From the IMG/VR virus record IMGVR_UViG_3300034073_003245, positions 21,717 to 85,716 of that record: a stretch of DNA of 64,000 nucleotides. The stretch is one strand, 5' to 3'. This DNA comes from a virus. Under the pieces are notes generated by a model. That model ran no database searches, was not told where the DNA came from, and was given only the letters and a program-made list of their open reading frames with translations. The first letter of the stretch is position 1. Each line of letters opens with the position of its first letter. Both the position numbers and the translations under genes were made by a program. Below, one piece after another: positions 30,898 through 48,850 of the stretch.

Positions 30898-32205
30898 CTA
30901 GACGATGATACTCACCCTTTTTCTCTGCGGCAACCCAAGACCAGCCAAATATGAAAATGCACCCACAGCAGAGTCAACTTGGTCGTCGTGGTCACAGGCT
31001 TCTGGGAATGAAGAAATCTCATCAAGCCAGTCGCTGACCCATGGACCACGAACGATCCGCACGTTTCCGTTTGCAACTGCGGCGGCAAATGGCCTTGCTC
31101 TTGTGACCTTGTCCCCGGTAGACCTAATACCCTGGAAGTCATACCCTGGGACCACATAACGGGCGTATTGGTCAACCAGGGCCTTGCCGGAAGAGCCAGG
31201 CTCCTGTTCCATTCTTATGGCCACCCCATGACCGTCTTCATAAGCGGTCTGAGCCACTAACTGCTCAACCTGCTCCCCCCTGACCCTTGCCTTACGCACA
31301 TCAAGGATGTAGGCAACACCCTGGTCAAAAATCATTAGTGTACCAACGGTCCAGTCGGGATTAGGGTTTGACGCTGAGGGCTCAGTCGCCGCTAAGTCCC
31401 AAAATCTGACAACTCTTGCCGCAGATGTCACATGGGGAACTTCAGCGGGGTCAATAATTACTACAGAAGTCCGCTCAAACATGGTCCCCAGGGTCGTAGA
31501 CCACCAGTCGCCTTCTTCTAGCCTTCTTCTCTCAACAGGATCAAGCGCTGACAGGGCCTGACGGTAGGAGTCGGCATCAATACCGGGGTTATCCGTCAAT
31601 TTTGATGGAACAAATATTCTGCCTTTTTCTTTACCCTCAATAATAAATCTTTGCCTAACCCAGTTGGGGGCTGGGTTTGATGCGGCCCTCATTCGTAGCG
31701 GGATTTGAGAAAGAGGGCCGGTTGCCGGGCGGCGCAAACGGGAGAACAAGTATCTGTAATCAGATTCGCGAATTTCCGTCACCTCGTCCATACCGATGAA
31801 CTGAAATTCAGATCCCTTGTATCGGAGATAATCGTTGGTGTTGTTCAGGTATCCGAAAGAAATTCTCGCCCCAGAAGGGAAGGTGGCAACATAACTATTC
31901 GCATTCCAGTGAATGTCCGACTCATTGTCAATCCATGACTTAAATCTGTCCATCAAAGCGCCAGGGAGAGAAAGGTCGGCAAATGTTCTTCTAAAAAGGA
32001 TTGCGGAATAGCCGGGTACATCAACATATTGAAGAGCAGACATCAAAAGGGCGGAAGACTTTCCGCCGCCAGCCGCGCCGCCAAAAAGAGCCTCAATCGC
32101 GTTTGTTCGCAAAAATACCCTTTGTGTAATGGACGCCGACTCAGGGCAATACAGAGGTTTCTTTGGTTCAAGATATTCAAGAACCTTGTTCCAGTCAGTT
32201 GCCAT
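30898..32205 (-). CDS. terL: terminase large subunit
   Basis: Walker A GGAAGGGKS, Walker B FIGMDE, ASNP coupling motif, nuclease WDLA...HDDQVD. Confidence 0.93.
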   Translation of the reverse strand: MATDWNKVLEYLEPKKPLYCPESASITQRVFLRTNAIEALFGGAAGGGKSSALLMSALQYVDVPGYSAILFRRTFADLSLPGALMDRFKSWIDNESDIHWNANSYVATFPSGARISFGYLNNTNDYLRYKGSEFQFIGMDEVTEIRESDYRYLFSRLRRPATGPLSQIPLRMRAASNPAPNWVRQRFIIEGKEKGRIFVPSKLTDNPGIDADSYRQALSALDPVERRRLEEGDWWSTTLGTMFERTSVVIIDPAEVPHVTSAARVVRFWDLAATEPSASNPNPDWTVGTLMIFDQGVAYILDVRKARVRGEQVEQLVAQTAYEDGHGVAIRMEQEPGSSGKALVDQYARYVVPGYDFQGIRSTGDKVTRARPFAAAVANGNVRIVRGPWVSDWLDEISSFPEACDHDDQVDSAVGAFSYLAGLGLPQRKRVSIIV

Positions 32206-32490: not shown

Positions 32491-34560
32491 ATGGCCTGGA
32501 ACTCAACACAGAACAAGTCTCTATCCGGACAGTCTTCTAAGGCTGCAGTTGGCCCTGGGGCGCCTATTGCACAAAACCTGGCACTTGCTGGTCGTCCGTA
32601 CACTGACTCATGGGACATTGAGCGCGTTTACAAAGAGGGCATGCAGAAGGTCACCTGGGTGGCTAGGTGCATTGACGCAATCGCAGGAAACCAAGCAAGA
32701 CTCCCGATTATTCTCCGAAAAGACAATTCTCCGGATGGGGAAGTATTGAGCGGAAGCAAGGCCAAAAACTCCGAACTTCTTAAGATCCTGAATACGAAGA
32801 GCAATATCGGGGAAAACTCATTTATCTTCAGGTACAGGCTTTCATCGCAACTCCTCATGAGTTCTAGGGGCGCTTTCATTGAGAAGATCAGGGGGCGCGA
32901 CGGGAGTATCGTTGGCCTCAACCTTTTGCCGCCACAAGCAACTGCACCAATACCTGATCCAAAGAAGTTTGTTGCTGGCTACGAAGTAAAAATGCCAAAC
33001 GGCGGTGCCGTGTACATGAAGCCTGAAGATGTTGTTTGGGTTCGTCGTCCACACCCGCTTGATCCATACCTTTCGCTCACTCCGCTGGAGGCTGCGGGAA
33101 TCGCGGTTGAAATTGAGAACTTGGCAAAGGTCTACAACAGAAACTTTCTCCTCAATGACGGCAGACCTGGAGGAATCGTTGTTCTTCGTGGCGAGATTGA
33201 CGACGACGACAAAGAAGAAATAAAAAACAGATTCCGTGGAAACCTAACAAAAGCGGGTCAAACAACAGTTATTTCCTCGGACGATGGAGCAGACTTTGTA
33301 GACACTTCGTCAAGCCCGAGAGACGCTGCCTACATACAAATGCGCCAGATCACCAAAGAGGAGATTCTCGCTTCCTTTGGTGTTCCTGAGTCGGTCATCG
33401 GCAATGCCTCGGGCAGAACATTCTCCAATGCTGGCGAAGAAATTAGAGTCTTCTGGAATGAAACAATGCTCCCCCATCTTGAGCCTCTCGCTAGGGCTCT
33501 TGATGAACTTGATGAGCAGTATTACGTTGACTTTGACACAAGCCAGGTACCTGTTCTTATTCTCTACGAACAGGAGAGAATGCGTTACATCAAGGAAGAA
33601 CTTAGCCAGGGGCTTATCAGCGTCAACGAATACAGGATTGCCGCCGGCATGAAGGAAGTTGAGAGCGATCTTGCCGACTCACTTCTGATGAACCCAAACC
33701 TGACCCCCATTGCAAACACAAAAAAGAAGATGGAGGAGCAGACGCAGGCCCAGGTCCAGGGGCCCCCAGGAATGCCGGGGATGCCCCCAGGCGCTCCCCC
33801 GGGGATGCCGCCCGGAATGCCGGGAGCAGGTCCGGTCGGAGCGGGTGGTCCACCGGGGGCGCCAGATCCAACGACCATGGAAGGCGCAATGCAACTCGCC
33901 GGACAAACCCAGGCAATGGCAGAAGATGCTACTGGCACAACAGACCTTCCACCTCTTCCAGTCGCAGAGCCCGAGGTTGCTCCCGCTACCGCATCAGCAC
34001 CTTCGGGCGGAATACAGACGAAGTCTGAAGATGAGTGGGACAAGAAGATTAAGACAACATTTAACAGGTGGACAGAAATCCTTGACAGAAGCCTTGAGAG
34101 GGTTTTTGAGCGCCAACAGAGAGTCGTCCTTGAAAAGGCAACTGGCGCAAAATCTAAAAAACAGATAGAAACCGGTTTGCTGGATGTTGATTCAGTTTTC
34201 TCAATTGACACTTGGGATAAGCAGATGGACGAAGACATCAAGCCAGTTCTTTCTGCAATCATCAATGATGCGCAAGAAACCTACGCAGAAAAAAGCCTCA
34301 TCAAGTCTCACATGAAGAAAGAGGACATAATCGCCCACATTGACTCTCAGATGTTGAGAATCAAAGCGATTAACGAAGAAACATCCTCAGAGATCAGTAG
34401 CGCAATTTTTGCTACACTTTCCATTAGGGACCCCGAAGAGCGAGCAACGGCACTTAGGAGCGCTATTGTCACAACTTTCACCAATCTTCTGGCAAAGAAG
34501 CGTGGACAAATTGCTGAAGACGAAGCCCGTCGTGCCTGGTCAGTTGGTGCCCAAATATAA
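32491..34560 (+). CDS. portal protein (HK97 family) with Pro/Gly/Met linker and C-terminal extension
   Basis: WVARCIDAIA, LSLTPLEAA, FLLNDGRPGG and EEILASFGVP...NA portal motifs. Confidence 0.93.
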   Translation: MAWNSTQNKSLSGQSSKAAVGPGAPIAQNLALAGRPYTDSWDIERVYKEGMQKVTWVARCIDAIAGNQARLPIILRKDNSPDGEVLSGSKAKNSELLKILNTKSNIGENSFIFRYRLSSQLLMSSRGAFIEKIRGRDGSIVGLNLLPPQATAPIPDPKKFVAGYEVKMPNGGAVYMKPEDVVWVRRPHPLDPYLSLTPLEAAGIAVEIENLAKVYNRNFLLNDGRPGGIVVLRGEIDDDDKEEIKNRFRGNLTKAGQTTVISSDDGADFVDTSSSPRDAAYIQMRQITKEEILASFGVPESVIGNASGRTFSNAGEEIRVFWNETMLPHLEPLARALDELDEQYYVDFDTSQVPVLILYEQERMRYIKEELSQGLISVNEYRIAAGMKEVESDLADSLLMNPNLTPIANTKKKMEEQTQAQVQGPPGMPGMPPGAPPGMPPGMPGAGPVGAGGPPGAPDPTTMEGAMQLAGQTQAMAEDATGTTDLPPLPVAEPEVAPATASAPSGGIQTKSEDEWDKKIKTTFNRWTEILDRSLERVFERQQRVVLEKATGAKSKKQIETGLLDVDSVFSIDTWDKQMDEDIKPVLSAIINDAQETYAEKSLIKSHMKKEDIIAHIDSQMLRIKAINEETSSEISSAIFATLSIRDPEERATALRSAIVTTFTNLLAKKRGQIAEDEARRAWSVGAQI

Positions 34561-34669
34561 ATCTGTAAATTAGCCAAATAATTTAAAGATTTATCAATAT
34601 CTTCAAATTGATACTTCCCTTCGTGCCGGTTTTTATGACCTATTATTTTTGAAGTCACCGAGGAGTCGT

Positions 34670-37600
34670 ATGTCATATAGCAACATTGAGTTCAAGTCAA
34701 ACCCGGGCCAATTCAACATTGACGAGGCCCAGGGCATCGTTGAGTGTTTCGTGGCGGGCATTGGCAACAAAGACTCGGTAGGCGACGTTCTTGTTCCTGG
34801 AGCATTTTCAGAAAGCCTTAAGAGAAGAAAGCCTCGCGTTGTGTGGGGCCACAACTGGAATGACCCAATTGGAAAAGTCCTAGAGATTTATGAGGTTGGC
34901 CCTGGAGACGCCAGACTCCCACAGAAGATGCGCCAGGCCGGAATCGGCGGTCTTTACGCCAAAGTGCAATTCAACCTGAATTCGGAGAAGGGTCGCGAGG
35001 CTTTTGCCAACGTGGCTTTCTTCGGCCATGAGCAAGAGTGGTCAATTGGATACAAGACCATTGACTCAATCCATGACCCAGGCGTCAAGGCGAACATCCT
35101 CAAGGAAGTTGAACTTTACGAAGTTTCGCCAGTTCTTCACGGCGCCAACCAGTTGACTGGCACAATTTCTGTAAAGTCAGACGATCTGGCCCTGGCCGAT
35201 GCAGAAAAGGGTTGGGGCATGGGGATGCCACACCACATGATGGGCATGAAGCCGCAGCAACCACAGGTCATCGTTATTAGAGAAGACGACGATGATGATG
35301 ACAAGTACGAGTCTGAGAAGCCGATTTTTGCCGAGGGGCTCGCTCAGCCGATTGGCGGACAACAGCGACGTATGCTTGAAAAAGAAATCGCTGAAAGAAC
35401 CGGTTCTCAAATCCGCCTAATTGAGGCGACCGAAAACACGGCAGTTTTTTCAAGAATGATGCCTACTGGCGGAACAATGGTTTTCCGCGTCAGTTATCAC
35501 ACCCCTGACAATTTCAGAACTTTTATGTTTGGCAAGCCGGAACTTGCAGACGGCCAAGTGACAATGCCGGGTGCGACGCAAAAGCCAAGAACGGTTGTTC
35601 CCTCCCAGATGCCATCAATGCCCATGCAGGTTAAGCCCGGCTATTCGCAAGACGAAATGGGGATGTATTCATTCCCTAAGTCTGGTGAGACGGAAAAGTC
35701 TGATCTAGGTTCCCAGATTCAGGCCATTGAGGACATCCTCATGGCTGAAACTGAGGAAAAAGTTGGCAGAACCCTCAATAGAAGAAATCTTTCAAAACTG
35801 AAGTCAGTCATGGAGAGCCTTCAAGAAATAATTGCTTCTGCTGAAAAGGAAATGGACACAAAGGGGTACGTGATCCCGGTTCCATTGGAAGAGGCATTTA
35901 GCACCAAGCAACTTCTAGATCCAATCTTTGACTATCACAGAGTTGAGACTCAAGTTACAGAAGACGGAATTGTCATTACTTCCGGAGTTACACAGGAATT
36001 CATAGAGGCAATTGGCGTTGCCGAAAAAGCGCTCGGGCGCACGCTGAGGGGCGGCCCGGGAAAAGCGCGCCGCGCCGGGCGCGGCCTGGCGGCACGCTTT
36101 GATCCAAACGCCTGGGACGGAGACGGAGACGGCTTAGTTCAGGAAGGTACACCTTTCCAGCGTCCTGCGATTCCAGGAGTTAACGACCGTTCAACTCGCG
36201 GAAGAGTTGACCCAGCAGCAGCAACACAGGCCTGGCAAACAGGTCAGCGCGGAATGGCTTCGCGCGGCGGTCGCCGTATCACCTTGGGCAATGCGAACCC
36301 GAATAGTTTGGGCCCGATGTACGGCTATGACCCAGAAGAGCAGGACTTCAGTTCTGAATCTTATTGGGAAGAAGTTTTTACAGACAGCGACGATATGTTG
36401 CCGTTTTTTCAGGAATGGCTTGAAAAGGAAAAAGGCAAAGAAGCGCTCTGGCATGAACTATCAGATGATGAATTTGAAGAATTGGTTGATAAGTGGAAGT
36501 CAAGCGATGCGTTTGAAAAAGACGTAAAACGCTACGCTGAAATTCAGGCCGATGAAGGAATAGAAGATGGCGAAGCATTTAGGTCCCTATTCAAGCGGTC
36601 AACGCTTGACAAAGTGTGGGTAAGAAACGAACCCAAAGAACGCGGGATGGCATCTCGCGCCGATGTTTTGACAGATCTGGCCATAGATAGCGACGTATCT
36701 GAAGCAATAGATTCTATTGTCAGAGAAGTGCTTGTTTATTCTGGGACAGGGGATAAAGACAAGATTTCTGACTTGGTTTCAGACGCGGCCAGAGAGATTC
36801 TTGACTCCATTAATTTTGACTCCATCAAAGACAGCCCTGGTAAAGCAGTTTCTGATTTCAGAAAAAAACTTGTGGAAACACTGTCAGACGAGGACTTTTT
36901 GCGCGAAGCAATGAGGAAAAAGGACGCAATTAATGAGTTTGTTGATGGTTTATACGACGCCGTAAATTCTGCTTTTGAAAAATATGAAGATCATCTCAAA
37001 AAAACTGGTGGAGACTTTGAAGACTTTGCCGATTTGAAATTTGAACTCCTTGATGACCTTGACGGAAGAGTTTCTAAAATTCTCAATTCATCGCGCAAAT
37101 TATTTGGCGAACTAAAATCAAAGAAAACTGAAGACGAATATAAGTCCAGAGATGAACGTAGAAAGTTAATTGCCTCAATACGGGCAGGGGAACTTCCTAA
37201 AGACTGGAGAGGTAGAGAGACAGAAGACCTAGTGGATGGTCGTGTTGCGTATGAGGAAGCACTTGAAGAAATTGTAAACAACAGCCCAGATGCAGACATT
37301 GACGAGTTGATGTCTGACTATATTGAGGCCGTCAGAGAGGGCGCTAGGAAAAATCCGGACAACAGAGTCCTCGCAGTCCTTGCTGATGTGTACGGAGATG
37401 ATGGGAAAATAACAGACGAAGAACTCAAGAGAAACCTGCAGGACGTAGCAAGACGCTCTCCATTTAACAAAAAGAGGGGCAGAAATGAGAAAGAAGTTCT
37501 TCGCGGCATGGCATCTCGCGGTGGCGGGCGTCCTGGCGACCCGATAACCGACCAAGAGCGCAATAAGGTCAAGAGAGACAGCACTGCCGTATCAATGTTC

Positions 37601-40600
37601 AAAGAGTCAACAGACTACGACAATGCTTTTAATTCTTGGCAAAAAGCCAACCCTGGAAAGTCGGAAAAAGACTTTGAAAAGTCGCCGGAATTTACTGATG
37701 CACTGGTTGAGTTTGACAGATACCTGCTTGACCAAGCATCAAAGGCCACGGGGATTCGCTACAGCAGAACCATGCCATATAGCGGTGGTCCAATTTCTCT
37801 TGAGCAAATGACTGCTAAGCAAATTCTCAGAGACAGAATGTCTGGGATGTCTCTTGATGATGTCGCTGAAAAAATGAATCTGTCTCGCGAGAAAGTCAGA
37901 TCGCTTGAGGCTCAGGAAGTTATGCGCCTGAGAGATGATGCTTCACCTAGAGAAATACTTGCCTACAGAACAATGGGCTTGAGCCTTGAAGACACAGGTC
38001 GTCTCTTTGGCATGCGCCCAGAGGACGTGCGCAAAGCAGAAGCCAAAGAGATGGCCGACATCCGCAAGGATATGGACGACAACAAACTTATTGAACTCCG
38101 GATGATGGGCTTTTCTCTTGATGATCTCGCAGAAATCACCGGAGCCAGTAGGGAAGATCTTCGTAAGCGGGAAATACAAAGACTAAGAAGAGGCCCAGAA
38201 GACGGTGGCGGCGCGCGCGGAATGGCTAGCCGTGGAAGGTCAGAAGACTTTGACGGCGGGTATGACGAGGCGTACGGTCCGACACCCCCCATAACAAGAA
38301 GGCCGCCGGTCGGAGAATGGGATGTCCTCGTGGGTGAAGAAGCCTACGAGAGAGAAGATGCCAGCAGGCAGCAACGCGGCATGGCAAGCCAAAACGTTAG
38401 ACCAAACGCCGGTCTAGTTAAGTACTCAACAGATCTATTGAATGAAAAACTTGAAGACCTGGACTCAGATCCTCAACCAGGAATGGCCGGAGCGACCCTT
38501 GATAAGACATGGGCAGAGGGAGTGCTTGATGGGCTTCGTGACGGCAGACTTTCATCTGATGACGCAATCAACATCATTGGCCTAGCAGGCAACGATGTCT
38601 TTAACGAAGGCAAGAAGCCAGAAGGCGAAAGAAACCAGGCACTCATTGATTCACGTATCAAGTTGAGCAAGAGGCTAAGAAGGTCTGTCGTTGATTCAAT
38701 GTCCGAGGGCGACATGGAGGAATACCAGGCAAATCGCCGCAGAAGAATGGGTGCTGATCGTGGAATGAGAAGCACTCTTTCTGAGGCAAACAGAAGGAGG
38801 GATGCCGGCCTTACTCCAGGCACTGGTGATCCATCCCCGGGAACACGTGGCCAAAGAGTGGCATCAAGTGGCGGCGAGTACAAGCCGAACACAGAAGAAA
38901 GAGATGCTGCGATTATTCAAAGGCTGAGAGACATAGGCCTTAGCGATGATGAAATTTCCGAATTGACTGGAATAGACAATCTTCCAGACGCAGAAAGAGG
39001 AATGGCATCAAGAGAAATAAAACTAAACAATCGGCAGATTGATAACGCCTTATCAGAACTTGACAATTTGACAGATGATCGTGGTTATGAAGATTGGGAA
39101 TCAATCCAAAAACTGCGTCAGCAATTGTCGGACGCCAAAGACAACAACGGAGTTTTTTCTCCTTCTGAGAGGGATATTGAGGACTATCTTGACGAACTAG
39201 AAAAACTTGAAGATGCAGGATTTGACGACTGGGAAGGTCTGTCAATGATCCGTTCTATTATTAGTGATTCTAGGGGCGAACGTGGCATGCGCTCAAGAAA
39301 CTCCGAAATAGATATGACCCTTGAGGAATACGGTCAACTTCTTGACACTCTTGACAAATATGTTGACGGAAGCGCGGGCGAGGGAGTCGGCGCTGATGAC
39401 GACATGCGTGTTCTTCAGCAGGTAATGGACAAACTTGAGGCGAGCCAAAACGCCAATGACGCAGTTGAACTAACGTCTGACGAAATTTCTGACTATCTAG
39501 ACAGTCTTAAGAATATCCGCGACAACGGTCCAATGGAGGACGCGACTTCTGGCGACAAGGCTAATATCAACAAGTTGATCTCAGCCCTTGAGGGGGCTAG
39601 GGATTCACGGGATGGATCCTACGAGACGCCGGCATTAAGGCGTTCCGGCGCAAGAATTAGCGACCAGCAGGGAAGGGCGTTTAGGTCATCAAGCGGAACT
39701 GTTAACCCTCACGAAAAAATTGAGATGACCCTCAACGGCGATGATATCTCAGCAATGGTTGAAGACATTGACGCGCTTCTGAAACAAACCCCAAATTCCG
39801 CAGCACTTAAGGCTGCTAGAGAAAAGTTCTCAAAGGCCAAGACTGGTGAAAAGATCACCATGGATAAAGACGAGTACGAGCAACTCTACAAAGACATTGA
39901 GACAGCAAAAACGCAGGGCAATAGGGTCACTTCTGAACTCGCATCACTTCTTGACCAGGCAGCAGAAAGCAAAGATGGCAAGTACGTTGACCCCAACCTA
40001 AGAGGACGCGGCGGTATGGCGTCTCGTAATAATGGGGCTCCTTCAGACATTACAGAGGCAATGCAGAAGGAATACATCTTCTGGGCCAGAAATAACCCAA
40101 ATCTTTTTGTCGCTCAAAGAATCCTGAAGAAGTACGACGATAACGATGGACAATTGTCCGCTAGGGACTGGAGAGCGCTTGACACTCTCTACACGAACTT
40201 AAGCCCACGTGGAGGCGGTCGTCGCTCTGGAATGAGATCTCGTTCGGGCCGTGATGCGGAAATAGAGAAACAGAAAAAAATAGACGCCGAAAGAATGCGA
40301 TCAGGCTCCACCACGGGATCGGAGAGCGAAAGAATTGGCAGATCTTCAGAGGGAACTGGAGTCTCAGCCAGTGGTCTTGGAGACATTGGCATTCGTGGTG
40401 AAGGCGCAAGCCAGAGGACAGAAACACCTGGCCCTTCAGAGAAGAAATTTACAGGGAAGTCATTCAATGAAGTCCAACCAGATAACTGGGAATCTCTTGA
40501 CATTGAGGAGAAGTACGACTGGCTATTCAGCAATGGCAAGCCGGAGGTTTCAGGAATGTCGCCGGCGGCCTATGAGGGCGCTCTCAAGAAGTTAATTGCG

Positions 40601-41566
40601 GAAGAAGAGGCTCTTGAAAAGGCCAATACCCGCAGAGCCAGAAGAGCAGGGGCGGGCCAAGATCGCGGAATGGCATCACGTGGAAGAACCCCGAGTCAAA
40701 ATGCCACCTATGACTGGGTTAACAATTTAAGCAGCCCTACTGAAAAATGGCTTGAAGAAAAGAATAAAGCAACCCTTGATTCGTATAAGGAATGGAAAAA
40801 AAACCTGGGAACTATAACCCCAGGAGGACAAGCGCCAGAGATGCTCAGGGGCATGTCTTCTCGCTCCGGTGGTTCTGGTCGCCAGGGAAGAACAATGATT
40901 ACCGACGAAGCAACATACTTCGGTGAGATTGAGAAGAACCTCCCAGTTGAGATAAGAAAAGCAACAGAAGCAAAAGAATCAAAAATTTCCCAAGCATTAT
41001 CGCTGCTGCAGGACATTATCAAGAAACAAGAAGCATCAAAGACCGGTTCAAGAAGAACCAATACGGGAAGCATTTTTGTAACAGCCGACGAGGCTGATCG
41101 TATTCTTGATGCGCTTATGTGGGTTATTGATAGACAGGTCCAAAGAAATGGCAACGAAGAAAGAATATCTGCTTTTGCAAAACTGGTTGACAAGATGGCA
41201 CAAGCCGCCATGTCAACTTTTGTAAACAGAGACACATCAGAAATCGGTTCTCGCACTACAAAAAGAACCAACAGCCGAGGAAAAGAAGTTGAGATCCCCG
41301 ATGCCGGTATAGGCCTGCCAAGAGGAATGGCTTCTAGTTCTAATTTAGGCGGTTACAATAGACGCAGAACACAAGCGGCGGACAAAAAATTTGAAGACAT
41401 CCTTCGTGAGGAAGTTGAAACAAAATTGACTCCAGATCAGCAGAAAAGATACAGCAAACTATACGAAGCAGAAATGGCCAAGTACGGCGGCGCTGGGCTG
41501 GCATTAAAGAGACAAGAAAAAAAAGAAATACACCAAAGAATCATGAAAGAAATTCTCGGCCAGTAA
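34670..41566 (+). CDS. prohead protease (S78/HK97-type) fused to ~1800-aa multi-domain polyprotein
   Basis: Start ATG 34670 after SD GAGGAG. N-terminal WGH, EWSIGY and LYEVSPVLHGAN protease motifs; 13 (R)GM(A/R/S)S motifs; triple sigma70-r4-like HTH. Confidence 0.88.
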   Translation: MSYSNIEFKSNPGQFNIDEAQGIVECFVAGIGNKDSVGDVLVPGAFSESLKRRKPRVVWGHNWNDPIGKVLEIYEVGPGDARLPQKMRQAGIGGLYAKVQFNLNSEKGREAFANVAFFGHEQEWSIGYKTIDSIHDPGVKANILKEVELYEVSPVLHGANQLTGTISVKSDDLALADAEKGWGMGMPHHMMGMKPQQPQVIVIREDDDDDDKYESEKPIFAEGLAQPIGGQQRRMLEKEIAERTGSQIRLIEATENTAVFSRMMPTGGTMVFRVSYHTPDNFRTFMFGKPELADGQVTMPGATQKPRTVVPSQMPSMPMQVKPGYSQDEMGMYSFPKSGETEKSDLGSQIQAIEDILMAETEEKVGRTLNRRNLSKLKSVMESLQEIIASAEKEMDTKGYVIPVPLEEAFSTKQLLDPIFDYHRVETQVTEDGIVITSGVTQEFIEAIGVAEKALGRTLRGGPGKARRAGRGLAARFDPNAWDGDGDGLVQEGTPFQRPAIPGVNDRSTRGRVDPAAATQAWQTGQRGMASRGGRRITLGNANPNSLGPMYGYDPEEQDFSSESYWEEVFTDSDDMLPFFQEWLEKEKGKEALWHELSDDEFEELVDKWKSSDAFEKDVKRYAEIQADEGIEDGEAFRSLFKRSTLDKVWVRNEPKERGMASRADVLTDLAIDSDVSEAIDSIVREVLVYSGTGDKDKISDLVSDAAREILDSINFDSIKDSPGKAVSDFRKKLVETLSDEDFLREAMRKKDAINEFVDGLYDAVNSAFEKYEDHLKKTGGDFEDFADLKFELLDDLDGRVSKILNSSRKLFGELKSKKTEDEYKSRDERRKLIASIRAGELPKDWRGRETEDLVDGRVAYEEALEEIVNNSPDADIDELMSDYIEAVREGARKNPDNRVLAVLADVYGDDGKITDEELKRNLQDVARRSPFNKKRGRNEKEVLRGMASRGGGRPGDPITDQERNKVKRDSTAVSMFKESTDYDNAFNSWQKANPGKSEKDFEKSPEFTDALVEFDRYLLDQASKATGIRYSRTMPYSGGPISLEQMTAKQILRDRMSGMSLDDVAEKMNLSREKVRSLEAQEVMRLRDDASPREILAYRTMGLSLEDTGRLFGMRPEDVRKAEAKEMADIRKDMDDNKLIELRMMGFSLDDLAEITGASREDLRKREIQRLRRGPEDGGGARGMASRGRSEDFDGGYDEAYGPTPPITRRPPVGEWDVLVGEEAYEREDASRQQRGMASQNVRPNAGLVKYSTDLLNEKLEDLDSDPQPGMAGATLDKTWAEGVLDGLRDGRLSSDDAINIIGLAGNDVFNEGKKPEGERNQALIDSRIKLSKRLRRSVVDSMSEGDMEEYQANRRRRMGADRGMRSTLSEANRRRDAGLTPGTGDPSPGTRGQRVASSGGEYKPNTEERDAAIIQRLRDIGLSDDEISELTGIDNLPDAERGMASREIKLNNRQIDNALSELDNLTDDRGYEDWESIQKLRQQLSDAKDNNGVFSPSERDIEDYLDELEKLEDAGFDDWEGLSMIRSIISDSRGERGMRSRNSEIDMTLEEYGQLLDTLDKYVDGSAGEGVGADDDMRVLQQVMDKLEASQNANDAVELTSDEISDYLDSLKNIRDNGPMEDATSGDKANINKLISALEGARDSRDGSYETPALRRSGARISDQQGRAFRSSSGTVNPHEKIEMTLNGDDISAMVEDIDALLKQTPNSAALKAAREKFSKAKTGEKITMDKDEYEQLYKDIETAKTQGNRVTSELASLLDQAAESKDGKYVDPNLRGRGGMASRNNGAPSDITEAMQKEYIFWARNNPNLFVAQRILKKYDDNDGQLSARDWRALDTLYTNLSPRGGGRRSGMRSRSGRDAEIEKQKKIDAERMRSGSTTGSESERIGRSSEGTGVSASGLGDIGIRGEGASQRTETPGPSEKKFTGKSFNEVQPDNWESLDIEEKYDWLFSNGKPEVSGMSPAAYEGALKKLIAEEEALEKANTRRARRAGAGQDRGMASRGRTPSQNATYDWVNNLSSPTEKWLEEKNKATLDSYKEWKKNLGTITPGGQAPEMLRGMSSRSGGSGRQGRTMITDEATYFGEIEKNLPVEIRKATEAKESKISQALSLLQDIIKKQEASKTGSRRTNTGSIFVTADEADRILDALMWVIDRQVQRNGNEERISAFAKLVDKMAQAAMSTFVNRDTSEIGSRTTKRTNSRGKEVEIPDAGIGLPRGMASSSNLGGYNRRRTQAADKKFEDILREEVETKLTPDQQKRYSKLYEAEMAKYGGAGLALKRQEKKEIHQRIMKEILGQ
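36046..36102 (+). promoter_or_regulatory. putative programmed -1 frameshift signal
   Basis: In-frame G GGA AAA at 36058-36064, upstream GAGGGG, hairpin GCCGCGC-CGG-GCGCGGC at 36069-36085, -1-frame TGA at 36100-36102. Confidence 0.6.
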
Positions 41567-41737: not shown

Positions 41738-43123
41738 ATGGCCGAAAAAGTTCAAGTTAGCATTGACGCCGAGGGCAACGTCCTTAAGTGTGCAAAAAAC
41801 CTTGCCGGCGGCGAGTGCGGCTATACGCCTGGCGCAAAAGTGTGTGGCAAGTGTGGTGCCATGCCTATTGAAATGAAGATGGTTCCGGTTGATGCCGAGG
41901 AAAAAGGTGGCGACTGGATGATGGGCGACGAAATGATGCCGGCTAAGAAAAAGAAGAAGGGCGGCATGGCTCTTCCGGACGACCTTGCTATGGATGAGGA
42001 TGAGGACGGCGAGATGATGCCGTCAAAGAAAAAGGCCATGGCTGAGGCTATGGAAGACGACGAAGAGGAAATGGACGAAGAGGAAGGCGCACCAATGCCT
42101 TCAAGCAAGAAGGCCATGAACGAGGAGATGGACGACGAAGAGGACGAAGAGGAAGACGACATGGAGGAAGAGGATTCCGACATGGCTGTTGACCTTGAGG
42201 CAGCCAAGAAGAAAAGACTTGCTTCACTTGGCGAGAAGTCCGCAGAATACGGCAAGAACGCCTACATGTGCGCCATTGAGCGCAAGGTCTACCCAGGTGG
42301 CGTTTCCGTTTGTGACGACTGCCCTGGTGGTTGTGTTTCAGAGAAGGGCATGCCAGGCCTTCTCCATGTTGAAGGCCTCGCTGAGCAGATGTTTGAGGGC
42401 AAGATCCTTGACTCGGGCTATTCGTCAGATGCCGACATGTTCGTTGTTGACGTTCAGACAAAGAGCGGCAAGGCAGTTGAGGTCTTTGTTGACGGAACAA
42501 CAGCAGAAGTTCTTGGTTGGCACAAACTTGATGATTCAAACTTTGAACAGAAGTCTGCCCTTGAGTCAATGATGGTTATTGACTTCCAGGAGGCCGCTGA
42601 GATCGCAGTTAAGTCAATCCAGGGCGATGTTGTGGCTGTTGAACCAGACATCTTTGAGGGCTTTGACGCTTATGCAGTTGAGATTGAGGGCATTGACGGA
42701 AAGTCATACGATGTCTTCGTTGCCCTTGATGGCGAGGTTCTCGGCTACGACAAGTATGAGCCAGAAGAGGCCGAAGACATTGAGGCCGAGGCTGCTGAAA
42801 TTGCTCTGAAGCGTGCTTTTAGCGACGAGATGCGTCAGCAGATGGCCAAAGAAGGCAATGCCCTCCCGGATGGCTCATACCCAATTGCCAGCGTTGACGA
42901 TCTGAAGAACGCAATCCAGGCATTTGGAAGAGCCAAGGATAAGGAAGCCACAAAGAAGCACATCATGAAGCGCGCCCGTGCTCTCGGCCAAGAGAAGTTG
43001 ATTCCAAGCAACTGGATTGGCGGAACAGAAGAGAAGTCGGCGGAACTGCCAGAAGACATCAAGGCATCGCTGATTGAATTTGAACTTCTTTCCGAAGAGG
43101 TGTCAAACCAGGAAAATAACTAA
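41738..43123 (+). CDS. acidic head-associated protein (Zn-ribbons, two PepSY-like domains, C-terminal ALPDGSYPI domain); possible scaffold
   Basis: CxxC motifs; D/E/M-rich tract; IDFQEAAEIA...YAVEI...DVFV..DGEVL; SD AGGAG. Confidence 0.65.
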   Translation: MAEKVQVSIDAEGNVLKCAKNLAGGECGYTPGAKVCGKCGAMPIEMKMVPVDAEEKGGDWMMGDEMMPAKKKKKGGMALPDDLAMDEDEDGEMMPSKKKAMAEAMEDDEEEMDEEEGAPMPSSKKAMNEEMDDEEDEEEDDMEEEDSDMAVDLEAAKKKRLASLGEKSAEYGKNAYMCAIERKVYPGGVSVCDDCPGGCVSEKGMPGLLHVEGLAEQMFEGKILDSGYSSDADMFVVDVQTKSGKAVEVFVDGTTAEVLGWHKLDDSNFEQKSALESMMVIDFQEAAEIAVKSIQGDVVAVEPDIFEGFDAYAVEIEGIDGKSYDVFVALDGEVLGYDKYEPEEAEDIEAEAAEIALKRAFSDEMRQQMAKEGNALPDGSYPIASVDDLKNAIQAFGRAKDKEATKKHIMKRARALGQEKLIPSNWIGGTEEKSAELPEDIKASLIEFELLSEEVSNQENN

Positions 43124-43141
43124 AAGAAAGCGTGCCCGCCT

Positions 43142-46100
43142 ATGACGGGTTTCAACCAAAGAAAAATCAGGCATTACGCTAATAGTCTTTTAGAACCGAA
43201 TCACGCCAAGAATGTTGATTTTCGCGCCATTCTTTTTCGCGAAAGCCTGAAGGCGTCTTCTTCTAAAGATGTCCTTGATGCGACGTACTCCATAAAGGCG
43301 GCGTCCCCATTCCAGGGTGATTCAGACAACAAAAAACGTTCACCAGCGCAAAAGGCAAAATCTCCCTACAACATTGAGTACGGTCTCGTATACGACCCTA
43401 ATGCCAAGTGGGCGCCAGGCAAATACTTCAAGCACTATGTAACTGAAGAAGAGCGCAAACAAGCGATGCAGTTGGATAACCCGAATCCAAACTGGGGCTG
43501 GCTTGACGGCACTGAGGGCTCAAACACCATGCCGGTGTCAAACAGCAAAGGCGACCTGAAGGTTGTCTACGAAAAAATCACACAAAAGCCAAGAGGCGAT
43601 GATTTTGAAGAAAAAGGCCTTCTTGGAAGATCAATAGGGGAAAGAAACCCAGCGGGGAAACTTGGAACCAGGGCGGCTAGGGCGTTTGGAGTAGTTGTTG
43701 ATGCGCTGGGTAAGTTCAGATGCCCCCCTGGTACTCCGGCGGCCAACCAGTTCACAAACGAGCGTGGCGAAAACTGTTTTTCCATATCTGGGGTGGCCCA
43801 GGATCTTATAGCAAACAGGTTGATCGGATTCTTGGAAGGAAAGCCGAAGTCTGATTCCAAACTTGTTTCATCCCTGCTTTCCGCTGGTGTTAGTTATTCA
43901 AGAATTAGAGATGCGTACAGAAGTGATGGGTGGAGAGGTCTAGCCAGCCTTGCTTCAGCAGCACTTGAGGGCGGCGGTCTTGTTGGAGACGAATACGATG
44001 ACGGTTCATATAGAACGTCCGTAATCCAAAAAGTTTTAGAAAGAGCAAAGGAAACACAGAACACTGTTTCCAGGACGAGAGCCAAGAGTGATGAGCGGAG
44101 AAAAATGGTCTCCGATTTGTTGGCAAAATACGGAATACCCGAAACTGGCGACAATTCAGATATGGTCCAACTTGTTGACGCAATGACAAGAGATGGAGTA
44201 CTACACCCGCTCACTAAGGGATCAGATCTTTTTATGGGTGGAACTCTTGCTTCCCATCAAGATGAACTCTTAGAAAAAATAATGGGTGACGCCGATTTCG
44301 CGGAATACAAGCGGATGAAAACAGCGGGGGAAACTGGCCCATTAACAGATATCGCTGACATGATACTTGAGAGGGACCGTCAATACATGCGCGGCACTAT
44401 TTCTGGAATTCTGCAAATGGCGCTCAGAAATCCTGACTCATACGGAAAAGTAAAATTTTCTTTAAAGCCGGAAAGAGATAAATCAGGCACTCATGCAGTA
44501 TCTTTCTGGTGGGGTACTAAAAGTTTTGAAGGACATCAGATTGTTATAAACCCATACGCAGTTGCAAAAGACATCATGCCGAACCTAAAAAAAGGTGAGT
44601 CAATTCTCGTAACCGCTACTGGAGGTGATTCTCAAGAGGACCACTGGAAAGCAATCGCGGCGAAACTTGGCGATGCAGAAAGAATGAGCATTTGGGCCAG
44701 GACGCACATGACCGACCTCGCTGCAACCGTTGGCAACGGTTGGGAGGATTTTGGCGCAGAAGTAGGAATACACGAGATGGTCCATGTCCAACAGTTTGAA
44801 GCGATGATTCCAATGGTGCTTCAAATGAATGGCCACCCGGATGCAAGGTCTTATACACCAGATCAAATTAACGACGCGCTGCGCACGCTTAGCAACTGGC
44901 AAATTGGCATTTCTATGGGTGAAATCGCAAATGATCCAGACTTGACAAAAGAAGTTTTTGGTCTTGACATCTACGATCTTGTTGAAAAACGTCTTGACGC
45001 TCTTGCTGGTTCATACAGCGCAATAACACAGCAGGAAGCACTTGAGGCACTGCAGGCGGCAAACGAACTTTCTGATGAATCAGAAAAAGAAGACGCTATG
45101 TTTCTATTCGCACAAAGTGTAGCCACGGCCACATACGAAACACTTGCAGAACTTGGTACAGCGCGAGAAATGGGATTGATTGAGGGGGAGGATGTGGACG
45201 AGGCGCTTTCGTTTATGAGCCCACCTAAATATGCCCCAATATCTGTTCCGTCTTCCCCCTCGGGTCCGCTATCTCCGGACCCAACTGCACCACGACCAAG
45301 CACGCCGTCCGGCGCTCCAACTCCGATCCGCCCTGGGTCACCAGGACCCGCTGTTCCTGACCTAGTTGACTCCACGGTTAGCACAGAAGAAGTTGAAATG
45401 ATGTGGGGTCTCAGACCAAGGCCTGGAAGAAAAGAAAAGACATACGACATCGTCAGAAACCGAAGAGGGAAGGTGCCTACTTTGATTCTTGACGGACGCA
45501 TGACAAGAGAAGATGTTGAGGATCACATATTTGGAGAGGTGGGGGTTAACGGGAAGCGAACTGGTGGTGTTCTTGGACAGATTCGTTCAATCAGAAACAT
45601 GTCCAAAAACGATACTCCTGACAAACCAACCGCCAGAGAAAGAAGAAGAATACTTAATGCCCTTCTTGACAGTTTGCCATTAGATGAAAAGGAAATAGAA
45701 AGAATTGGCCTTGATACTGGACCACTGACTGGTGAAGACAGAGAGAAACTTGAACAGACAATTGCAATACTTAGAAATGCTGTTTATGAATACAGGGAAA
45801 AAGCAGAAAAAGCAAGAGAGGCATACAGAAACTACCAAGGCGTAAGTACAGAATACGACTACGACGACTATGACGCCAACTACAGAGCCCTCCAGCGTCT
45901 TGATAATGAAGCAAGGATGTGGGACGCGCTCGCTAATAGAATAGGCAGAGGACTAGCCGCGTCTCTTGACGACATTATTGACATTAGGGACAATGGGCCA
46001 TATCCTCCGTCAACTGATCGCGGTAGAAGGAGAGCCGCAGTTCCCGGCAGGACTTTTGATGTTGACGGAATGGAAATAGACAGGGACACTGGGGAAATTG

Positions 46101-48850
46101 TTTTTAGACGCGAAGCGCCAGCAGACACAACCCCAACAGTTGACATAACCGATGCTGATGTTGCCGGAATTGCGGAATATCAAGAGTCAATAAGAAAGCC
46201 AGAAGAAAACGCGGCTATATCCGAAGCGCTTTCCTCACCTCCGCGAACATCCATCATTTTTGGGCCGGATGGTTCTGAGTTGTTGTCTGTAATTTTGGAT
46301 GACGCCGAGATTTCAAGGGCATTCAAAGAAAACGGAATGACTCCTCCGCCCGGAATTAAAACTGCTTCAAAAGAAATAGATAGATCTCGCTTGATTATTT
46401 CTGGAATTGATAGATCTGAAGTTCGCAAAGAAATAGTTGTTGACGTTGAGTTGGACATACCGGATGATGCAGAAGAATATGAGATGCGCGACATTTCAAT
46501 TGCCTCACCAATAACAGACGAGATGGCCAACAGGGGAATGGCGTCCAGGGGGCGCATAACAAGTGCTGCCGGAATGCTTGCGTCAAAAAGAGCGCGTAAA
46601 CTTCTTGAAAAGGCCGGTATTGACCCAGAAAGAGCAGAAACCGTTCAGGTTGTTGCTCAATTGGGAATTGCCTTTTCTATCGGTGGGCCTCCCGCTGTAG
46701 CAGCACAATTGCTACGAATGGGCTCCCGTGATGCTGCGCTAGCAGGCCTAGACAGGGCTGTTGAGAAGGGCTGGATTGAGCCGTCAACCGCTTTAAGAAT
46801 ACGCTCAATGATTATTGACAGAATTGCGCCAGATGGCATTCCGCAAGACGTAAAGGACGCAGTTGAAGCGTCAAAAGAAAAAGTTTGGACCCCAGAAAAT
46901 AGACAAAAGGCCCAGGAGTTGGCAGACGCTGCTCACGAAAGGGTGATGGAACTCGGTGAAAGGGCTTCTGAATTTGCATCTGATGTCAGGGAAAAGGCAT
47001 CAGAAGTGGCGGAAAGAGCGAAAGAAAGAGCATCAGATACAGCGGATAGAGCGAGAGATGCTGCTGGCGCTGTTGGTTCAAGACTGGGTGAAAGATTCAG
47101 AAGAAGAAGGGGTCAAGAACAGGAAATAACACCTTCCCTGTTAGACGATCCATTTTCTTCCACCCCTTCTGGTGACCCATTCCCCCTTGCCAACCCCTGG
47201 GATGACAGGTTTAAATCTCTGTATTTCAACGCCTTTACAAAGAATGTTTCTTCATTTGATAGCAAGCAACTCGGAGAAAAAAGCAGAAAGAAAAAAGTCA
47301 ACCTGCTTTTGAGCCAGGGACAAAAGGCGGCCTTTACAAAATCACAAAACGGCAAAACTCAAGTCGTTCTTCCGCCGGGCAAAGTAAAAGTTACATCAAG
47401 AAACGAAGATGGCTCTATCAACGCAGAAATGAAGAGTCAGGAAAATACCGAGTCGTATTTGAAAAATGTTGAAAAGAAATTTTCAGATTTGGAAAAAAAC
47501 GACAGTTTTGATGTTAGATCTCGCGCCAAAGAAACTTCAGAATACGCAAAAAGAAAAAGAGTTGAATATTCCGTACAGAAGTACATGCCTCCAAAATCTT
47601 CTGAAGCATCAAGAATGTCTCTTGAAAAAACAAATAAAATTATTGAAGACATAAACTCTTCTGGAATACCTGTTTTTAGAATCACTGATGCGTCAGAAAA
47701 CAAGGAGACTATTTTTAAAGGTATTAGCGTTTTGCGCGTTATGGCAGATGAGATCATAAATACATCTGATATTGGCAAAGAGATTATTGCTATTCTTTCA
47801 AGAAATTCAGATACGCAAATTTACGAAATGATGAGAAAATTTGCCATTGACGCCCACAATTCCCTTGACAAAAGAACGCGCATATCTGTCACGAAAACAG
47901 AACTAAATCAGATCGCAAAAAACGGAAGAATTACAGTCGGTGAAAAGCCGCCTGCAGTTGAAAATTTGGCAAAGATAAAAAACATCATGAGGGGTGTTGC
48001 TAACGACTCCTACTCCCCACAGGTCGTAAATGTTGAACTGTCGCCATCATGGGTTACTGACGAAATTGAACAAAGTCTTTATATTGGTGGGACAAGAGTC
48101 GGCTCTGAAGAGTTTTACAACTCAGACAATAGAATTAAGATAGTTCTTAGGGCAGAAAACGCTCAAAGAATCGGATACGCGATCAAGCCACACGATGTTT
48201 CCCCGATCTATATCTCGCTGGCAGAAGACAACGAGGACGTAATTGTTAACGCTATTTTTGGCAATATTTCCGATGACGAAAACGAATCAGCGAAACAGAT
48301 AGCCACCGTGCTCCAGGCCATGTATGACAAGAATTACTCCAATGTTTTTGGAAGTAAAGGTTCATCAAAAGTTGATGCTTTTATAGTTGGGGATATAAGC
48401 CTTGATGACATTGAGCACGTCAAGGTGCCAAACACGGTATTCGGCTATAGAGGGAGAATACCGGCTACAACGCCAATTTTTGGCGAAAAGAACATGAGGG
48501 ACGCCATGAGACAGGCTGGAGTTCCAGAAGAAAAAATAACAAAGTTCTTCTCCCAAGACGGAACCATTGGTGGTGGTTTTAGCCCGAGGCACATTTCTTA
48601 TTTGCTGGAAATCGCGGAGGCTCAAGAGATGAAAGAAAAACTCATATCTTCTGGATTTCCTGATGTTGTTTTCACCAACAAAGACGGGATTGACATGCTT
48701 TCCGAAGACACGTGGGGCAGGAGCGGAATGACTGGCAGCAAGAAGGGCAAGGCAAAACTTGCAGAACTTGCCATGAACGAGTTAAGTGAAATAATGAAAA
48801 AACTGTCAGAGTCAAAGCCTTCTGAGCAAAAGAAGGAGAGCGTGGCGTGA
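43142..48850 (+). CDS. giant polyvalent head protein with HExxH zincin metallopeptidase and degenerate ART-like domains
   Basis: 1902 aa; IHEMVH at 44771 plus downstream ETLAE; RGMASR at 46532; 11-mer helical repeats. Confidence 0.7.
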   Translation: MTGFNQRKIRHYANSLLEPNHAKNVDFRAILFRESLKASSSKDVLDATYSIKAASPFQGDSDNKKRSPAQKAKSPYNIEYGLVYDPNAKWAPGKYFKHYVTEEERKQAMQLDNPNPNWGWLDGTEGSNTMPVSNSKGDLKVVYEKITQKPRGDDFEEKGLLGRSIGERNPAGKLGTRAARAFGVVVDALGKFRCPPGTPAANQFTNERGENCFSISGVAQDLIANRLIGFLEGKPKSDSKLVSSLLSAGVSYSRIRDAYRSDGWRGLASLASAALEGGGLVGDEYDDGSYRTSVIQKVLERAKETQNTVSRTRAKSDERRKMVSDLLAKYGIPETGDNSDMVQLVDAMTRDGVLHPLTKGSDLFMGGTLASHQDELLEKIMGDADFAEYKRMKTAGETGPLTDIADMILERDRQYMRGTISGILQMALRNPDSYGKVKFSLKPERDKSGTHAVSFWWGTKSFEGHQIVINPYAVAKDIMPNLKKGESILVTATGGDSQEDHWKAIAAKLGDAERMSIWARTHMTDLAATVGNGWEDFGAEVGIHEMVHVQQFEAMIPMVLQMNGHPDARSYTPDQINDALRTLSNWQIGISMGEIANDPDLTKEVFGLDIYDLVEKRLDALAGSYSAITQQEALEALQAANELSDESEKEDAMFLFAQSVATATYETLAELGTAREMGLIEGEDVDEALSFMSPPKYAPISVPSSPSGPLSPDPTAPRPSTPSGAPTPIRPGSPGPAVPDLVDSTVSTEEVEMMWGLRPRPGRKEKTYDIVRNRRGKVPTLILDGRMTREDVEDHIFGEVGVNGKRTGGVLGQIRSIRNMSKNDTPDKPTARERRRILNALLDSLPLDEKEIERIGLDTGPLTGEDREKLEQTIAILRNAVYEYREKAEKAREAYRNYQGVSTEYDYDDYDANYRALQRLDNEARMWDALANRIGRGLAASLDDIIDIRDNGPYPPSTDRGRRRAAVPGRTFDVDGMEIDRDTGEIVFRREAPADTTPTVDITDADVAGIAEYQESIRKPEENAAISEALSSPPRTSIIFGPDGSELLSVILDDAEISRAFKENGMTPPPGIKTASKEIDRSRLIISGIDRSEVRKEIVVDVELDIPDDAEEYEMRDISIASPITDEMANRGMASRGRITSAAGMLASKRARKLLEKAGIDPERAETVQVVAQLGIAFSIGGPPAVAAQLLRMGSRDAALAGLDRAVEKGWIEPSTALRIRSMIIDRIAPDGIPQDVKDAVEASKEKVWTPENRQKAQELADAAHERVMELGERASEFASDVREKASEVAERAKERASDTADRARDAAGAVGSRLGERFRRRRGQEQEITPSLLDDPFSSTPSGDPFPLANPWDDRFKSLYFNAFTKNVSSFDSKQLGEKSRKKKVNLLLSQGQKAAFTKSQNGKTQVVLPPGKVKVTSRNEDGSINAEMKSQENTESYLKNVEKKFSDLEKNDSFDVRSRAKETSEYAKRKRVEYSVQKYMPPKSSEASRMSLEKTNKIIEDINSSGIPVFRITDASENKETIFKGISVLRVMADEIINTSDIGKEIIAILSRNSDTQIYEMMRKFAIDAHNSLDKRTRISVTKTELNQIAKNGRITVGEKPPAVENLAKIKNIMRGVANDSYSPQVVNVELSPSWVTDEIEQSLYIGGTRVGSEEFYNSDNRIKIVLRAENAQRIGYAIKPHDVSPIYISLAEDNEDVIVNAIFGNISDDENESAKQIATVLQAMYDKNYSNVFGSKGSSKVDAFIVGDISLDDIEHVKVPNTVFGYRGRIPATTPIFGEKNMRDAMRQAGVPEEKITKFFSQDGTIGGGFSPRHISYLLEIAEAQEMKEKLISSGFPDVVFTNKDGIDMLSEDTWGRSGMTGSKKGKAKLAELAMNELSEIMKKLSESKPSEQKKESVA

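Follow-up and report, generated by a model that had tools for sequence, protein, structure and literature searches.

The stretch of DNA analysed here (64,000 nucleotides (nt), hereafter the window) covers positions 21,717 to 85,716 of the IMG/VR virus record IMGVR_UViG_3300034073_003245, an 85.7-kb record with a completeness estimate of 54%, and contains on its plus strand a gene (34670-41566) in which a prohead protease is joined to a long cargo polyprotein and in which ribosomes probably change frame at a slippery heptamer located at 36058-36064. The open frame extends from a TTG codon at 34649, and an alignment with 22 homologues places the start at the ATG codon at 34670 (MSYSNIEFK...). 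From this ATG there are 465 amino acids (aa) up to the lysine codon of the heptamer, 477 aa for a short product generated by a -1 shift and 2298 aa for the full product, which agrees with the sizes of about 477 and 2298 aa given in an earlier note made from the sequence alone (hereafter the original prediction). Residues 29-173 of the protein (P0001; 34733-35167, plus strand) form a Peptidase_S78 domain (HK97-type prohead serine protease), with matches to Pfam family PF04586 (E 2e-11, 44.8 bits, above the curated cut-off of 21) and to PHROG 80, head maturation protease (E 1.1e-29). His61 (WGHNW) and Ser125 (EWSIG), which we take to be the catalytic pair of the Peptidase_S78 family, are invariant in all 23 sequences of a protein alignment (A2). 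According to the same alignment, the short product includes a conserved C-terminal domain (YVIPV...DPIFDYHRVE...EKALGR; 35864-36046, plus strand), which closes in the glycine-rich linker carrying the shift site and which served as the anchor for locating the site in relatives. The part encoded exclusively in the 0 frame begins with a module (FDPNAWDGDGDG...; 36098-36262, plus strand) that reaches to the first RGMAS motif (36248-36262), and in total about 1830 aa of cargo follow the shift site in frame with the protease.

The heptamer G_GGA_AAA (36058-36064, plus strand) is read in the 0 frame as CCG GGA AAA (P G K), with CCG at 36056-36058 and GGA AAA extending to 36064. This confirms the X_XXY_YYZ register of the original prediction within the open reading frame (ORF) from 34649 or 34670 to 41566, and -1 re-pairing is possible for both tRNAs (GGA to GGG, AAA to AAA). 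The GC-rich region that follows (36065-36097, plus strand) folds into a hairpin, the candidate stimulator. Its core conformer consists of the arms GCCGCGC (36069-36075) and GCGCGGC (36079-36085), which are exact reverse complements, with CGG as loop and a spacer of 4 nt to the heptamer; the seven G-C pairs amount to -14.0 kcal/mol, so that the 7-bp hairpin proposed earlier stands as described. The minimum free energy (MFE) of 36065-36100 is -22.8 kcal/mol, and the MFE conformer pairs 36074-36080 with 36084-36090 plus outer pairs. The GC-rich patch noticed before is also apparent, the GC content being 0.72 in 36000-36099 compared to roughly 0.4-0.55 across most of the gene. In the -1 frame, 12 codons (SAPRRARPGGTL) lead to the stop codon TGA at 36100-36102 (tail at 36064-36102, plus strand). 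Translation places this stop where the original prediction had it, overlapping the codons TTT GAT CCA AAC (FDPN) at the beginning of the DPNAWDGDGDG module and ahead of all RGMAS motifs, the first of which begins at 36248. A sequence resembling a Shine-Dalgarno (SD) motif, GAGGGG, lies 6 nt 5' of the heptamer (36046-36051, plus strand). Furthermore, C_CCG_GGA at 36055-36061 (CCCGGGAAAA) forms an overlapping in-frame heptamer just ahead of the main one, which is seen only in clades that have the proline codon CCG in front of GGA and lacks conservation outside them. The stretch is present in DNA runs of one study, labelled as a subsurface metagenome, and was found in no RNA run; contigs from four of these DNA runs, three of which may be the source itself, are identical to the window over 35800-36400 and show no indel at the site; the sequence is therefore not a one-off assembly error, which is all that this agreement tells.

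The heptamer alone is weak evidence, because 14 in-frame XXXYYYZ heptamers are found in the same ORF. This is no more than in the other two registers (13 and 14), and we dropped the heptamer count as evidence. No other of the 2299 such segments in the ORF is as stable as the 32 nt 3' of the heptamer. When all in-frame heptamers in stop-to-stop ORFs of at least 100 aa on both strands of the 85.7-kb record were ranked by the stability of the downstream 32 nt, the site was first among 225, with -19.9 kcal/mol (median -4.0 kcal/mol, 5th percentile -9.5 kcal/mol). The combination of heptamer and hairpin is exceptional and significant against chance. A search against Rfam brought up neither a frameshift element nor any other family close to its threshold; the top match was mir-638, with 20 bits versus a gathering score of 87. 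As internal negative controls we used two paralogous modules of this record. The one in the 1177-aa ORF 51859-55392 (IGGGTRGARRAARF...; 52480-52779, plus strand) has neither a heptamer nor a strong hairpin, and the shorter one in the 778-aa ORF 55729-58065 (IGRAAGRV; 56395-56517, plus strand) has no heptamer. Arginine is encoded by AGA or AGG in these linkers, and the equivalent 36 nt fold at -6.6 kcal/mol in the 1177-aa ORF and at -8.7 kcal/mol in the 778-aa ORF. Since these paralogues encode a similar peptide without heptamer or hairpin, the type of peptide does not force the RNA features.

Conservation was analysed in two sets of relatives. IMG/VR contained 320 related stretches, the best 80 of which were examined; the window and the 77 heptamer-bearing loci among them were grouped into 21 clusters at 80% aa identity of the upstream protein, with one representative each. 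The wider set comprised 300 sequences, i.e. the window and the fetched loci, including those from a metagenome scan, many of which represent the same contigs; the 295 sequences with the anchor domain were reduced to 99 distinct 200-nt contexts. An in-frame X_XXA_AAA heptamer is located at the aligned linker in 77 of the 80 loci, at local protein identities down to about 30%, and the heptamer is kept in 21 of 21 clusters and in 84 of the 99 contexts. In 82 of these 84 contexts a -1 shift would truncate the protein, as in the window, with a hairpin of -12 kcal/mol or stronger in 76 and a weaker structure in six, while two contexts have a flipped layout, in which the cargo lies in the -1 frame. 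The remaining contexts are split into two genes (two), fused with a linker lacking the heptamer (eight) or cut by the end of the contig (five). Among the six with weaker structure, two look like chance (L283, L288) and four are plausible (L030, L035, L254, L299). A few of the 76 are less certain as well, such as L263, where the site lies some codons upstream, and L290, where an A7 run lies elsewhere. With this, the conservation check proposed along with the original prediction came out in favour of the site, and the device appears to be widespread in the family, but not universal.

The 84 heptamers are of the types GGGAAAA (63), AAAAAAA (16), CCCAAAA (2), GGGAAAG (1), TTTAAAA (1) and TTTTTTA (1). 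The codon before GGA varies (CCG, CTG, TTG, TCG, GGG, AAG, GCG, TGG, ACG), and so does the encoded residue (P, L, S, G, K, A and W, among others), but its third base is always G. Likewise, where glycine is replaced by lysine, the codons before AAA AAA (CCA, TCA, ACA, CGA, GAA) always end with A, and the CTC codon before CCA AAA in L029 ends with C. Thus, amino-acid changes from G-K to K-K or P-K leave the site slippery. As background, third-position G has a frequency of 17% in the same ORFs, GGA makes up 30% of the glycine codons and AAA 65% of the lysine codons. Conservation thus concerns the slippery pattern and not the peptide. The -1 tails in the 77 relatives comprise 1-12 codons and are conserved neither in length nor in sequence (S, R, SKAR, IRPRR, SKGSR and others), which indicates that the function would be truncation and not the addition of a new domain.

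Three observations concern the heptamers themselves. First, the last base is A in 81 of 82 X_XXA_AAN contexts (the exception, L281, has G_GGA_AAG), although AAG accounts for 35% of the lysine codons; this bias may reflect the tRNA-Lys repertoire of the hosts. Second, a metagenome contig of a distant lineage (L260, Ga0129333_10002723, near locus 4100) has a heptamer of a different class at the same linker, T_TTT_TTA (AGT TTT TTA, S-F-L), followed after 4 nt by a hairpin of -14.6 kcal/mol and after 13 codons by the -1 stop. Third, a second in-frame heptamer, C_CCA_AAN, lies about 41-44 nt past the main one in L001-L028 and others (GAC CCA AAx, DPN/DPK) and is the sole heptamer in L032/L033, whereas the window has GAT CCA AAC at this position; since it lacks a hairpin (-4.1 kcal/mol in L032), it was not counted as a cassette.

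At the codon level, synonymous-codon identity was compared with its expectation in 18 of the 21 representatives (the other three loci were not long enough). The 12 highest of 255 five-codon windows, covering 370 aligned codons, are all located at codons 0 to +12 from GGA, with a maximum score of 2.42 (median 1.10, 95th percentile 1.59). The synonymous-site constraint that the original prediction had suggested looking for thus peaks exactly on the heptamer and the hairpin. A GC-rich hairpin, usually 4-6 nt behind the heptamer, is found in nearly all of 43 unique 100-nt contexts, and its stem is clade-specific (AGCAGCC/GGCTGCT, GCGGCC/GGCCGC, CCGCGCC/GGCGCGG, GGCGCGGC/GCCGCGCT, GGCGCGC/GCGCGCT, CGGCCC/GGGCCG, GGGGCG/CGCCCC, AGGGCCG). 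It is kept even where the downstream peptide is unrelated, as in L045 (DNGPTGPT) and L055 (GDGAPNTK). In 18 of the 21 representatives, the downstream 32 nt rank within the lowest 1% of MFE values across the ORF; the exceptions are L030 (7.7%), L035 (19%) and L040 (3.6%). Because arginine and alanine codons are mutually complementary, we additionally recoded the 12 downstream codons 1000 times synonymously, using the codon usage of each gene. The native MFE was at or below the 5th percentile of the recodings in 17 of the 21 representatives; in the window it was -22.8 kcal/mol versus a mean of -11.0 kcal/mol, and 1 of 1000 recodings was as stable. Conservation of the hairpin, another expectation of the original prediction, is thereby supported, and we base it on the ranking within the ORFs and on the recodings, not on a formal covariation score.

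Natural variants of the layout are particularly informative. In split relatives (L077/L084, L261/L298 from the metagenome scan, and L085, 82% identical), a TAA codon closes the protease ORF precisely at the aligned position of the heptamer (alignment A2), and the cargo gene has its own ATG about 25 nt downstream. Neither heptamer nor hairpin is present there (-8.1 and -7.3 kcal/mol, GC content 0.38 and 0.44). The cassette would thus disappear when it is not needed. The split layout also shows that a short protein of about 470 aa is a functional unit and that the cargo can be made separately as well, starting with the shared module. In flipped relatives, the polarity is reversed. The 0 frame of L143/L147 (two samples) continues with ...GGGRKKEDAPSGR and stops 7 codons past A_AAA_AAA, and the homologous module and cargo (RRRALGALAKLTGELDPNLRRDSDNDGLIFDGTWREMP..., 557 codons) lie in the -1 frame, with entry at CGA_AAA_AAA and a hairpin after 6 nt; this -1 frame is open for 18 codons upstream only, none of which is ATG, GTG or TTG. 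A scan of IMG/VR for closer relatives of L143 returned none above 55% identity. In L297/L300/L303 (three contigs from the metagenome scan), the 0 frame ends with ...GETEKKV and a stop 1 codon past the heptamer, and the -1 frame (SLRGRAQSFDPNAVDGDEDGLVQEGTPFERP...) runs for more than 826 codons, has no start codon and is accompanied by a hairpin of -14.1 kcal/mol. Overall, the -1 frames of the flipped lineages are open for 18-20 codons upstream and contain neither ATG nor GTG nor TTG, so that module and cargo could be expressed only via a -1 shift at the heptamer. The two flipped groups share only about 33% identity outside the protease domain. L299/L302, which at 65% identity come closest to the L297 lineage within the set, carry TCA_AAA_AAA and are truncating like most contexts. 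We regard the flipped lineages as the strongest argument that ribosomes would really shift at the heptamer in this family.

Based on these comparisons, the gene very probably (at roughly 0.86) contains a real programmed -1 ribosomal frameshift (PRF) that yields a 477-aa protease next to the 2298-aa fusion. This is what the original prediction had proposed, and the heptamer, the hairpin, the synonymous tests and the flipped and split relatives all support it. According to this model, ribosomes decoding GGA in the P site and AAA in the A site (36059-36064) would run into the GC hairpin 4 nt further on, which would act as a roadblock at the mRNA entrance. A fraction would slip by -1, with tRNA-Gly re-pairing on GGG and tRNA-Lys on AAA, read 12 more codons and terminate at TGA 36100-36102, thus releasing a 477-aa protease with the conserved middle and C-terminal domains but without cargo. 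Unshifted ribosomes would make the 2298-aa fusion, the cargo part of which opens with the module common to two other large proteins. The head protease might later cut the fusion at the RGMAS-type motifs, which look like maturation cleavage sites. In this way, a ratio of free protease to protease-cargo fusion could be set by an RNA signal on one mRNA, and the cargo per prohead could be dosed or limited. The slipping itself, its efficiency and the role in cargo dosing are what we infer from the conserved signal.

Several findings weigh against this interpretation or are at least neutral to it. Dinucleotide shuffles of 36058-36110 give a z-score of only -1.93, and 9 of 200 shuffles are equally stable, a weak signal which is due to the high GC content of the patch. 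The distance to the -1 stop is ordinary, with 1-12 codons (median 4) compared to ORF medians of 5-12; a -1 stop is found within 12 codons at 52-78% of all ORF positions. As -1 stops are that common throughout these ORFs, we dropped the early stop as weak evidence. Heptamer and structure are usually separated by 5-9 nt, and the 4-nt spacer is at the short end of this range. The SD-like sequence proposed as an upstream stimulator is indeed present in the window, but it is not a conserved element, since GAGG or GGAGG occurs within 12 nt in only 4 of the 21 representatives and the remaining ones have the glycine-glycine codons GGTGGT or GGCGGT upstream. The eight fused contexts without a heptamer in the linker (L032/33, L274, L279, L282, L284/285, L286, L289, L301) seem to do without the device. 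The recoding test failed in 4 of the 21 representatives (L001, 0.057; L007, 0.076; L030, 0.36; L035, 0.13). RNAalifold found no consensus pair in an ungapped 55-column alignment of the 21 representatives, because loop size and register differ between the clades. Finally, G_GG.A_AA.A was reported by earlier work to be inefficient in E. coli, as referred to in a part of PMC4066793.

With regard to other explanations, the site could be a conserved RNA element with another job, such as a translational pause while the protease part folds, an RNase or mRNA-stability element or a protein-binding site, with negligible shifting and the short protease released by proteolysis. Selection on RNA structure is by itself no proof of slipping, the distance to the -1 stop is unremarkable, and the polyprotein contains many putative cleavage motifs through which proteolysis could free the protease. 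We nevertheless consider this explanation unlikely, because a pause or stability element needs neither the X_XXY_YYZ register nor a matching third base across G-, A- and C-type heptamers. In addition, the homologous cargo of two independent flipped lineages could be translated only after a -1 shift at the heptamer, and heptamer and hairpin were lost together in the split lineages.

Still less probable is transcriptional slippage, i.e. stuttering of RNA polymerase on the A run instead of ribosomal slippage. A run of four A is too short for efficient polymerase slippage, and four is the number in GGGAAAA, the heptamer of the window and of 63 of the 84 heptamer contexts. Longer runs occur in the family, with A7 in sixteen contexts and A8 in the L297 lineage, and transcriptional indels are known for runs such as AAAAAAA (described in part of PMC4066793). 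On the other hand, the register dependence and the hairpin 4-6 nt downstream are hallmarks of ribosomal PRF, and, at the DNA level, the contigs of the four runs show no indel at the site. Least credible of all is that the site is a compositional by-product of a linker rich in Gly, Lys, Arg and Ala, whose codons (GGN, AAR, CGN, GCN) would yield GGGAAAA and GC self-complementarity by chance: the unremarkable number of in-frame heptamers, the fact that the Arg codon CGC and the Ala codon GCG are reverse complements, and the weak shuffle z-score fit with it, but it appears already contradicted by the cluster, recoding, synonymous and 99-context data, given that paralogous modules with similar peptides lack heptamer and strong fold in the same genome, that recodings reach the native stability in 1 of 1000 cases for the window and in at most 5% for 17 of 21 lineages, that the synonymous peak falls exactly on the site, and that the hairpin is kept in clades with unrelated downstream peptides.

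Among known systems, the predicted frameshift resembles that of E. coli dnaX (tau/gamma), in which the shift truncates, a short and a long protein share the N-terminus, and a stem-loop lies downstream. The dnaX gene undergoes -1 PRF at an X_XXA_AAN heptamer stimulated by this downstream stem-loop (as described in part of PMC6771820, where the combination of a two-tRNA slip site and a roadblock hairpin is given for dnaX and for viral sites), and the shifted ribosome soon reaches a stop. The present site differs in its heptamer (G_GGA_AAA, or A_AAA_AAA in some relatives, instead of A_AAA_AAG), in the lack of a conserved SD-like stimulator upstream (4 of 21), and in the gene, a Peptidase_S78 protease-cargo fusion compared to a polymerase clamp-loader subunit. 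The -1 tail comprises 12 codons in the window, whereas it is a single codon in dnaX. Thus, the site would be dnaX-like in its outcome, but it is no member of dnaX by sequence or gene.

The GGGAAAA heptamer is annotated as the -1 slip site of the tail-chaperone gene of Microbacterium phage Bush, an actinophage (in a part of PMC11749239), and G_GG.A_AA.A is among the heptamers used by bacterial insertion sequence (IS) elements (in a part of PMC4066793). With the tail assembly chaperones G/GT, the gene shares a conserved -1 PRF within a phage structural cluster and a ratio of two proteins with a common N-terminus. However, the chaperone genes lie between the major tail and tape-measure genes and their shift extends the protein, whereas the present gene lies between portal and capsid genes and its shift truncates, save in the two flipped lineages. 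Some head genes of tailed phages likewise use -1 PRF to make two versions of a single head protein. The 10A/10B proteins of T7 represent two forms of its capsid protein generated by -1 PRF, and the major head protein of Lactobacillus phage A2 reportedly involves a -1 frameshift, too. Those shifts extend a shell protein C-terminally, while here a maturation protease would be recoded and about 1830 aa of cargo removed.

In retroviruses and totiviruses, Gag and Gag-Pol are made from one mRNA at a PRF-set ratio of short product to fusion, and the fusion is later cleaved by the protease of the particle. The likeness is one of logic only, an assembly protein being made alone or fused to proteins that are carried in. 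The exact layout, with the short product in the 0 frame and the fusion reached by -1, is present in the flipped lineages L143/L147 and L297/L300/L303. The window, by contrast, has the opposite polarity, since its fusion is made without a shift; moreover, we deal with a DNA phage and an HK97-type protease without homology. Phage lambda C/Nu3 and herpesvirus UL26/UL26.5 are nested protease/scaffold pairs, i.e. two head-assembly proteins that share sequence and are made at a set ratio. There, a second in-frame start or a promoter inside the gene produces proteins with a common C-terminus, whereas the two products proposed here would share the N-terminus and arise by recoding.

We found no recoding in a prohead protease or scaffold gene in the full-text literature, and as subscription journals and supplements lay outside this search, an earlier description may exist. 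A 2016 recoding review contains neither 'scaffold' nor 'prohead' in its first 300,000 characters, and the frameshifts mentioned in the PRFect paper include capsid genes but no protease. What the comparisons support is a -1 PRF signal of canonical type that stands in a new gene context, truncates the product and has natural flipped and split forms. For the recoding field, this would add a well-conserved -1 PRF to a class of genes without a described case in the literature found. For head assembly, it would offer a testable answer to how plain protease is supplied beside a 2298-aa fusion and how the cargo dose per head is set. The site also matters for annotation: gene callers give one giant ORF and miss the short protein, and in the flipped lineages they would give a truncated protease and an orphan ORF without a start. 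From an evolutionary point of view, a homologous junction that occurs in truncating, extending and split form represents a natural experiment on the evolution of PRF sites. In engineering, the compact cassette of heptamer, 4-6 nt spacer and 6-9 bp GC stem could even be used to dose the proteins that are loaded into capsids.

More tentatively, at slightly less than even odds in our judgement, the shift might be a Gag/Gag-Pol-like dosing switch at the junction of protease and cargo that sets the number of copies of a large and variable effector polyprotein per head and is evolutionarily plastic, having been flipped by one-base changes at least twice or replaced by two genes. The evolution of both polarities points, speculatively, to a rather efficient shift or to a loose constraint on the ratio. 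If such a plastic switch existed, the shift efficiency would reach tens of percent, so that phages of either polarity could be viable, and this would be the first case in which recoding is known to govern the protein cargo of a tailed-phage capsid.

Concerning the genomic setting, the protease gene directly follows the portal gene (32491-34560, PF04860), and the large terminase gene (30898-32205) precedes both on the minus strand in divergent orientation. An HK97-type major capsid gene is located 22 kb downstream (58192-59526, PF05065). Megablast of 20 kb gave no match, and tblastn of the first 550 aa against isolated phages matched 193 records, all below 60% identity and in the protease domain only (about residues 1-187); neither the C-terminal domain nor the shift site was found in any of them. 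A profile search of the PDB with alignment A2 for a fold of residues 190-470 gave no match at E-values up to 1; with no fold to go by and the major capsid gene 22 kb away, the scaffold role named in the original prediction is a mere possibility for these residues. Gordonia phage DalanDe (L150, ON755184.1, 22424-27325) is among the closest isolated phages; its gp27, a 1633-aa 'capsid maturation protease', differs in architecture from the window gene in that the S78 domain lies in the C-terminal part behind a long N-terminal extension. In the cargo part of the window gene, sub-threshold matches to Sigma70_r4 and HTH_28 (22.7 bits versus a cut-off of 24.1) were obtained at 37804-38194 (residues ~1058-1095 of P0001).

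Between the protease and capsid genes, about 16.6 kb (41738-58065) are occupied by large ORFs (461, 1902, 199, 672, 1177 and 778 aa), most of them without a family match. This is an unusually long insert for a head module, and it may encode further packaged cargo. The 461-aa protein (41738-43123) is very acidic and rich in Met and Lys runs, has Cys pairs near its N-terminus and shows sub-threshold similarity to PepSY; it may be scaffold-like. The 778-aa ORF at 55729-58065, which carries the shorter paralogous module, also matches Zeta_toxin (PF06414, E 1.7e-10) and AAA_33, with DUF3721 at its N-terminus, and its product looks like a kinase-type effector that shares the module with the protease cargo.

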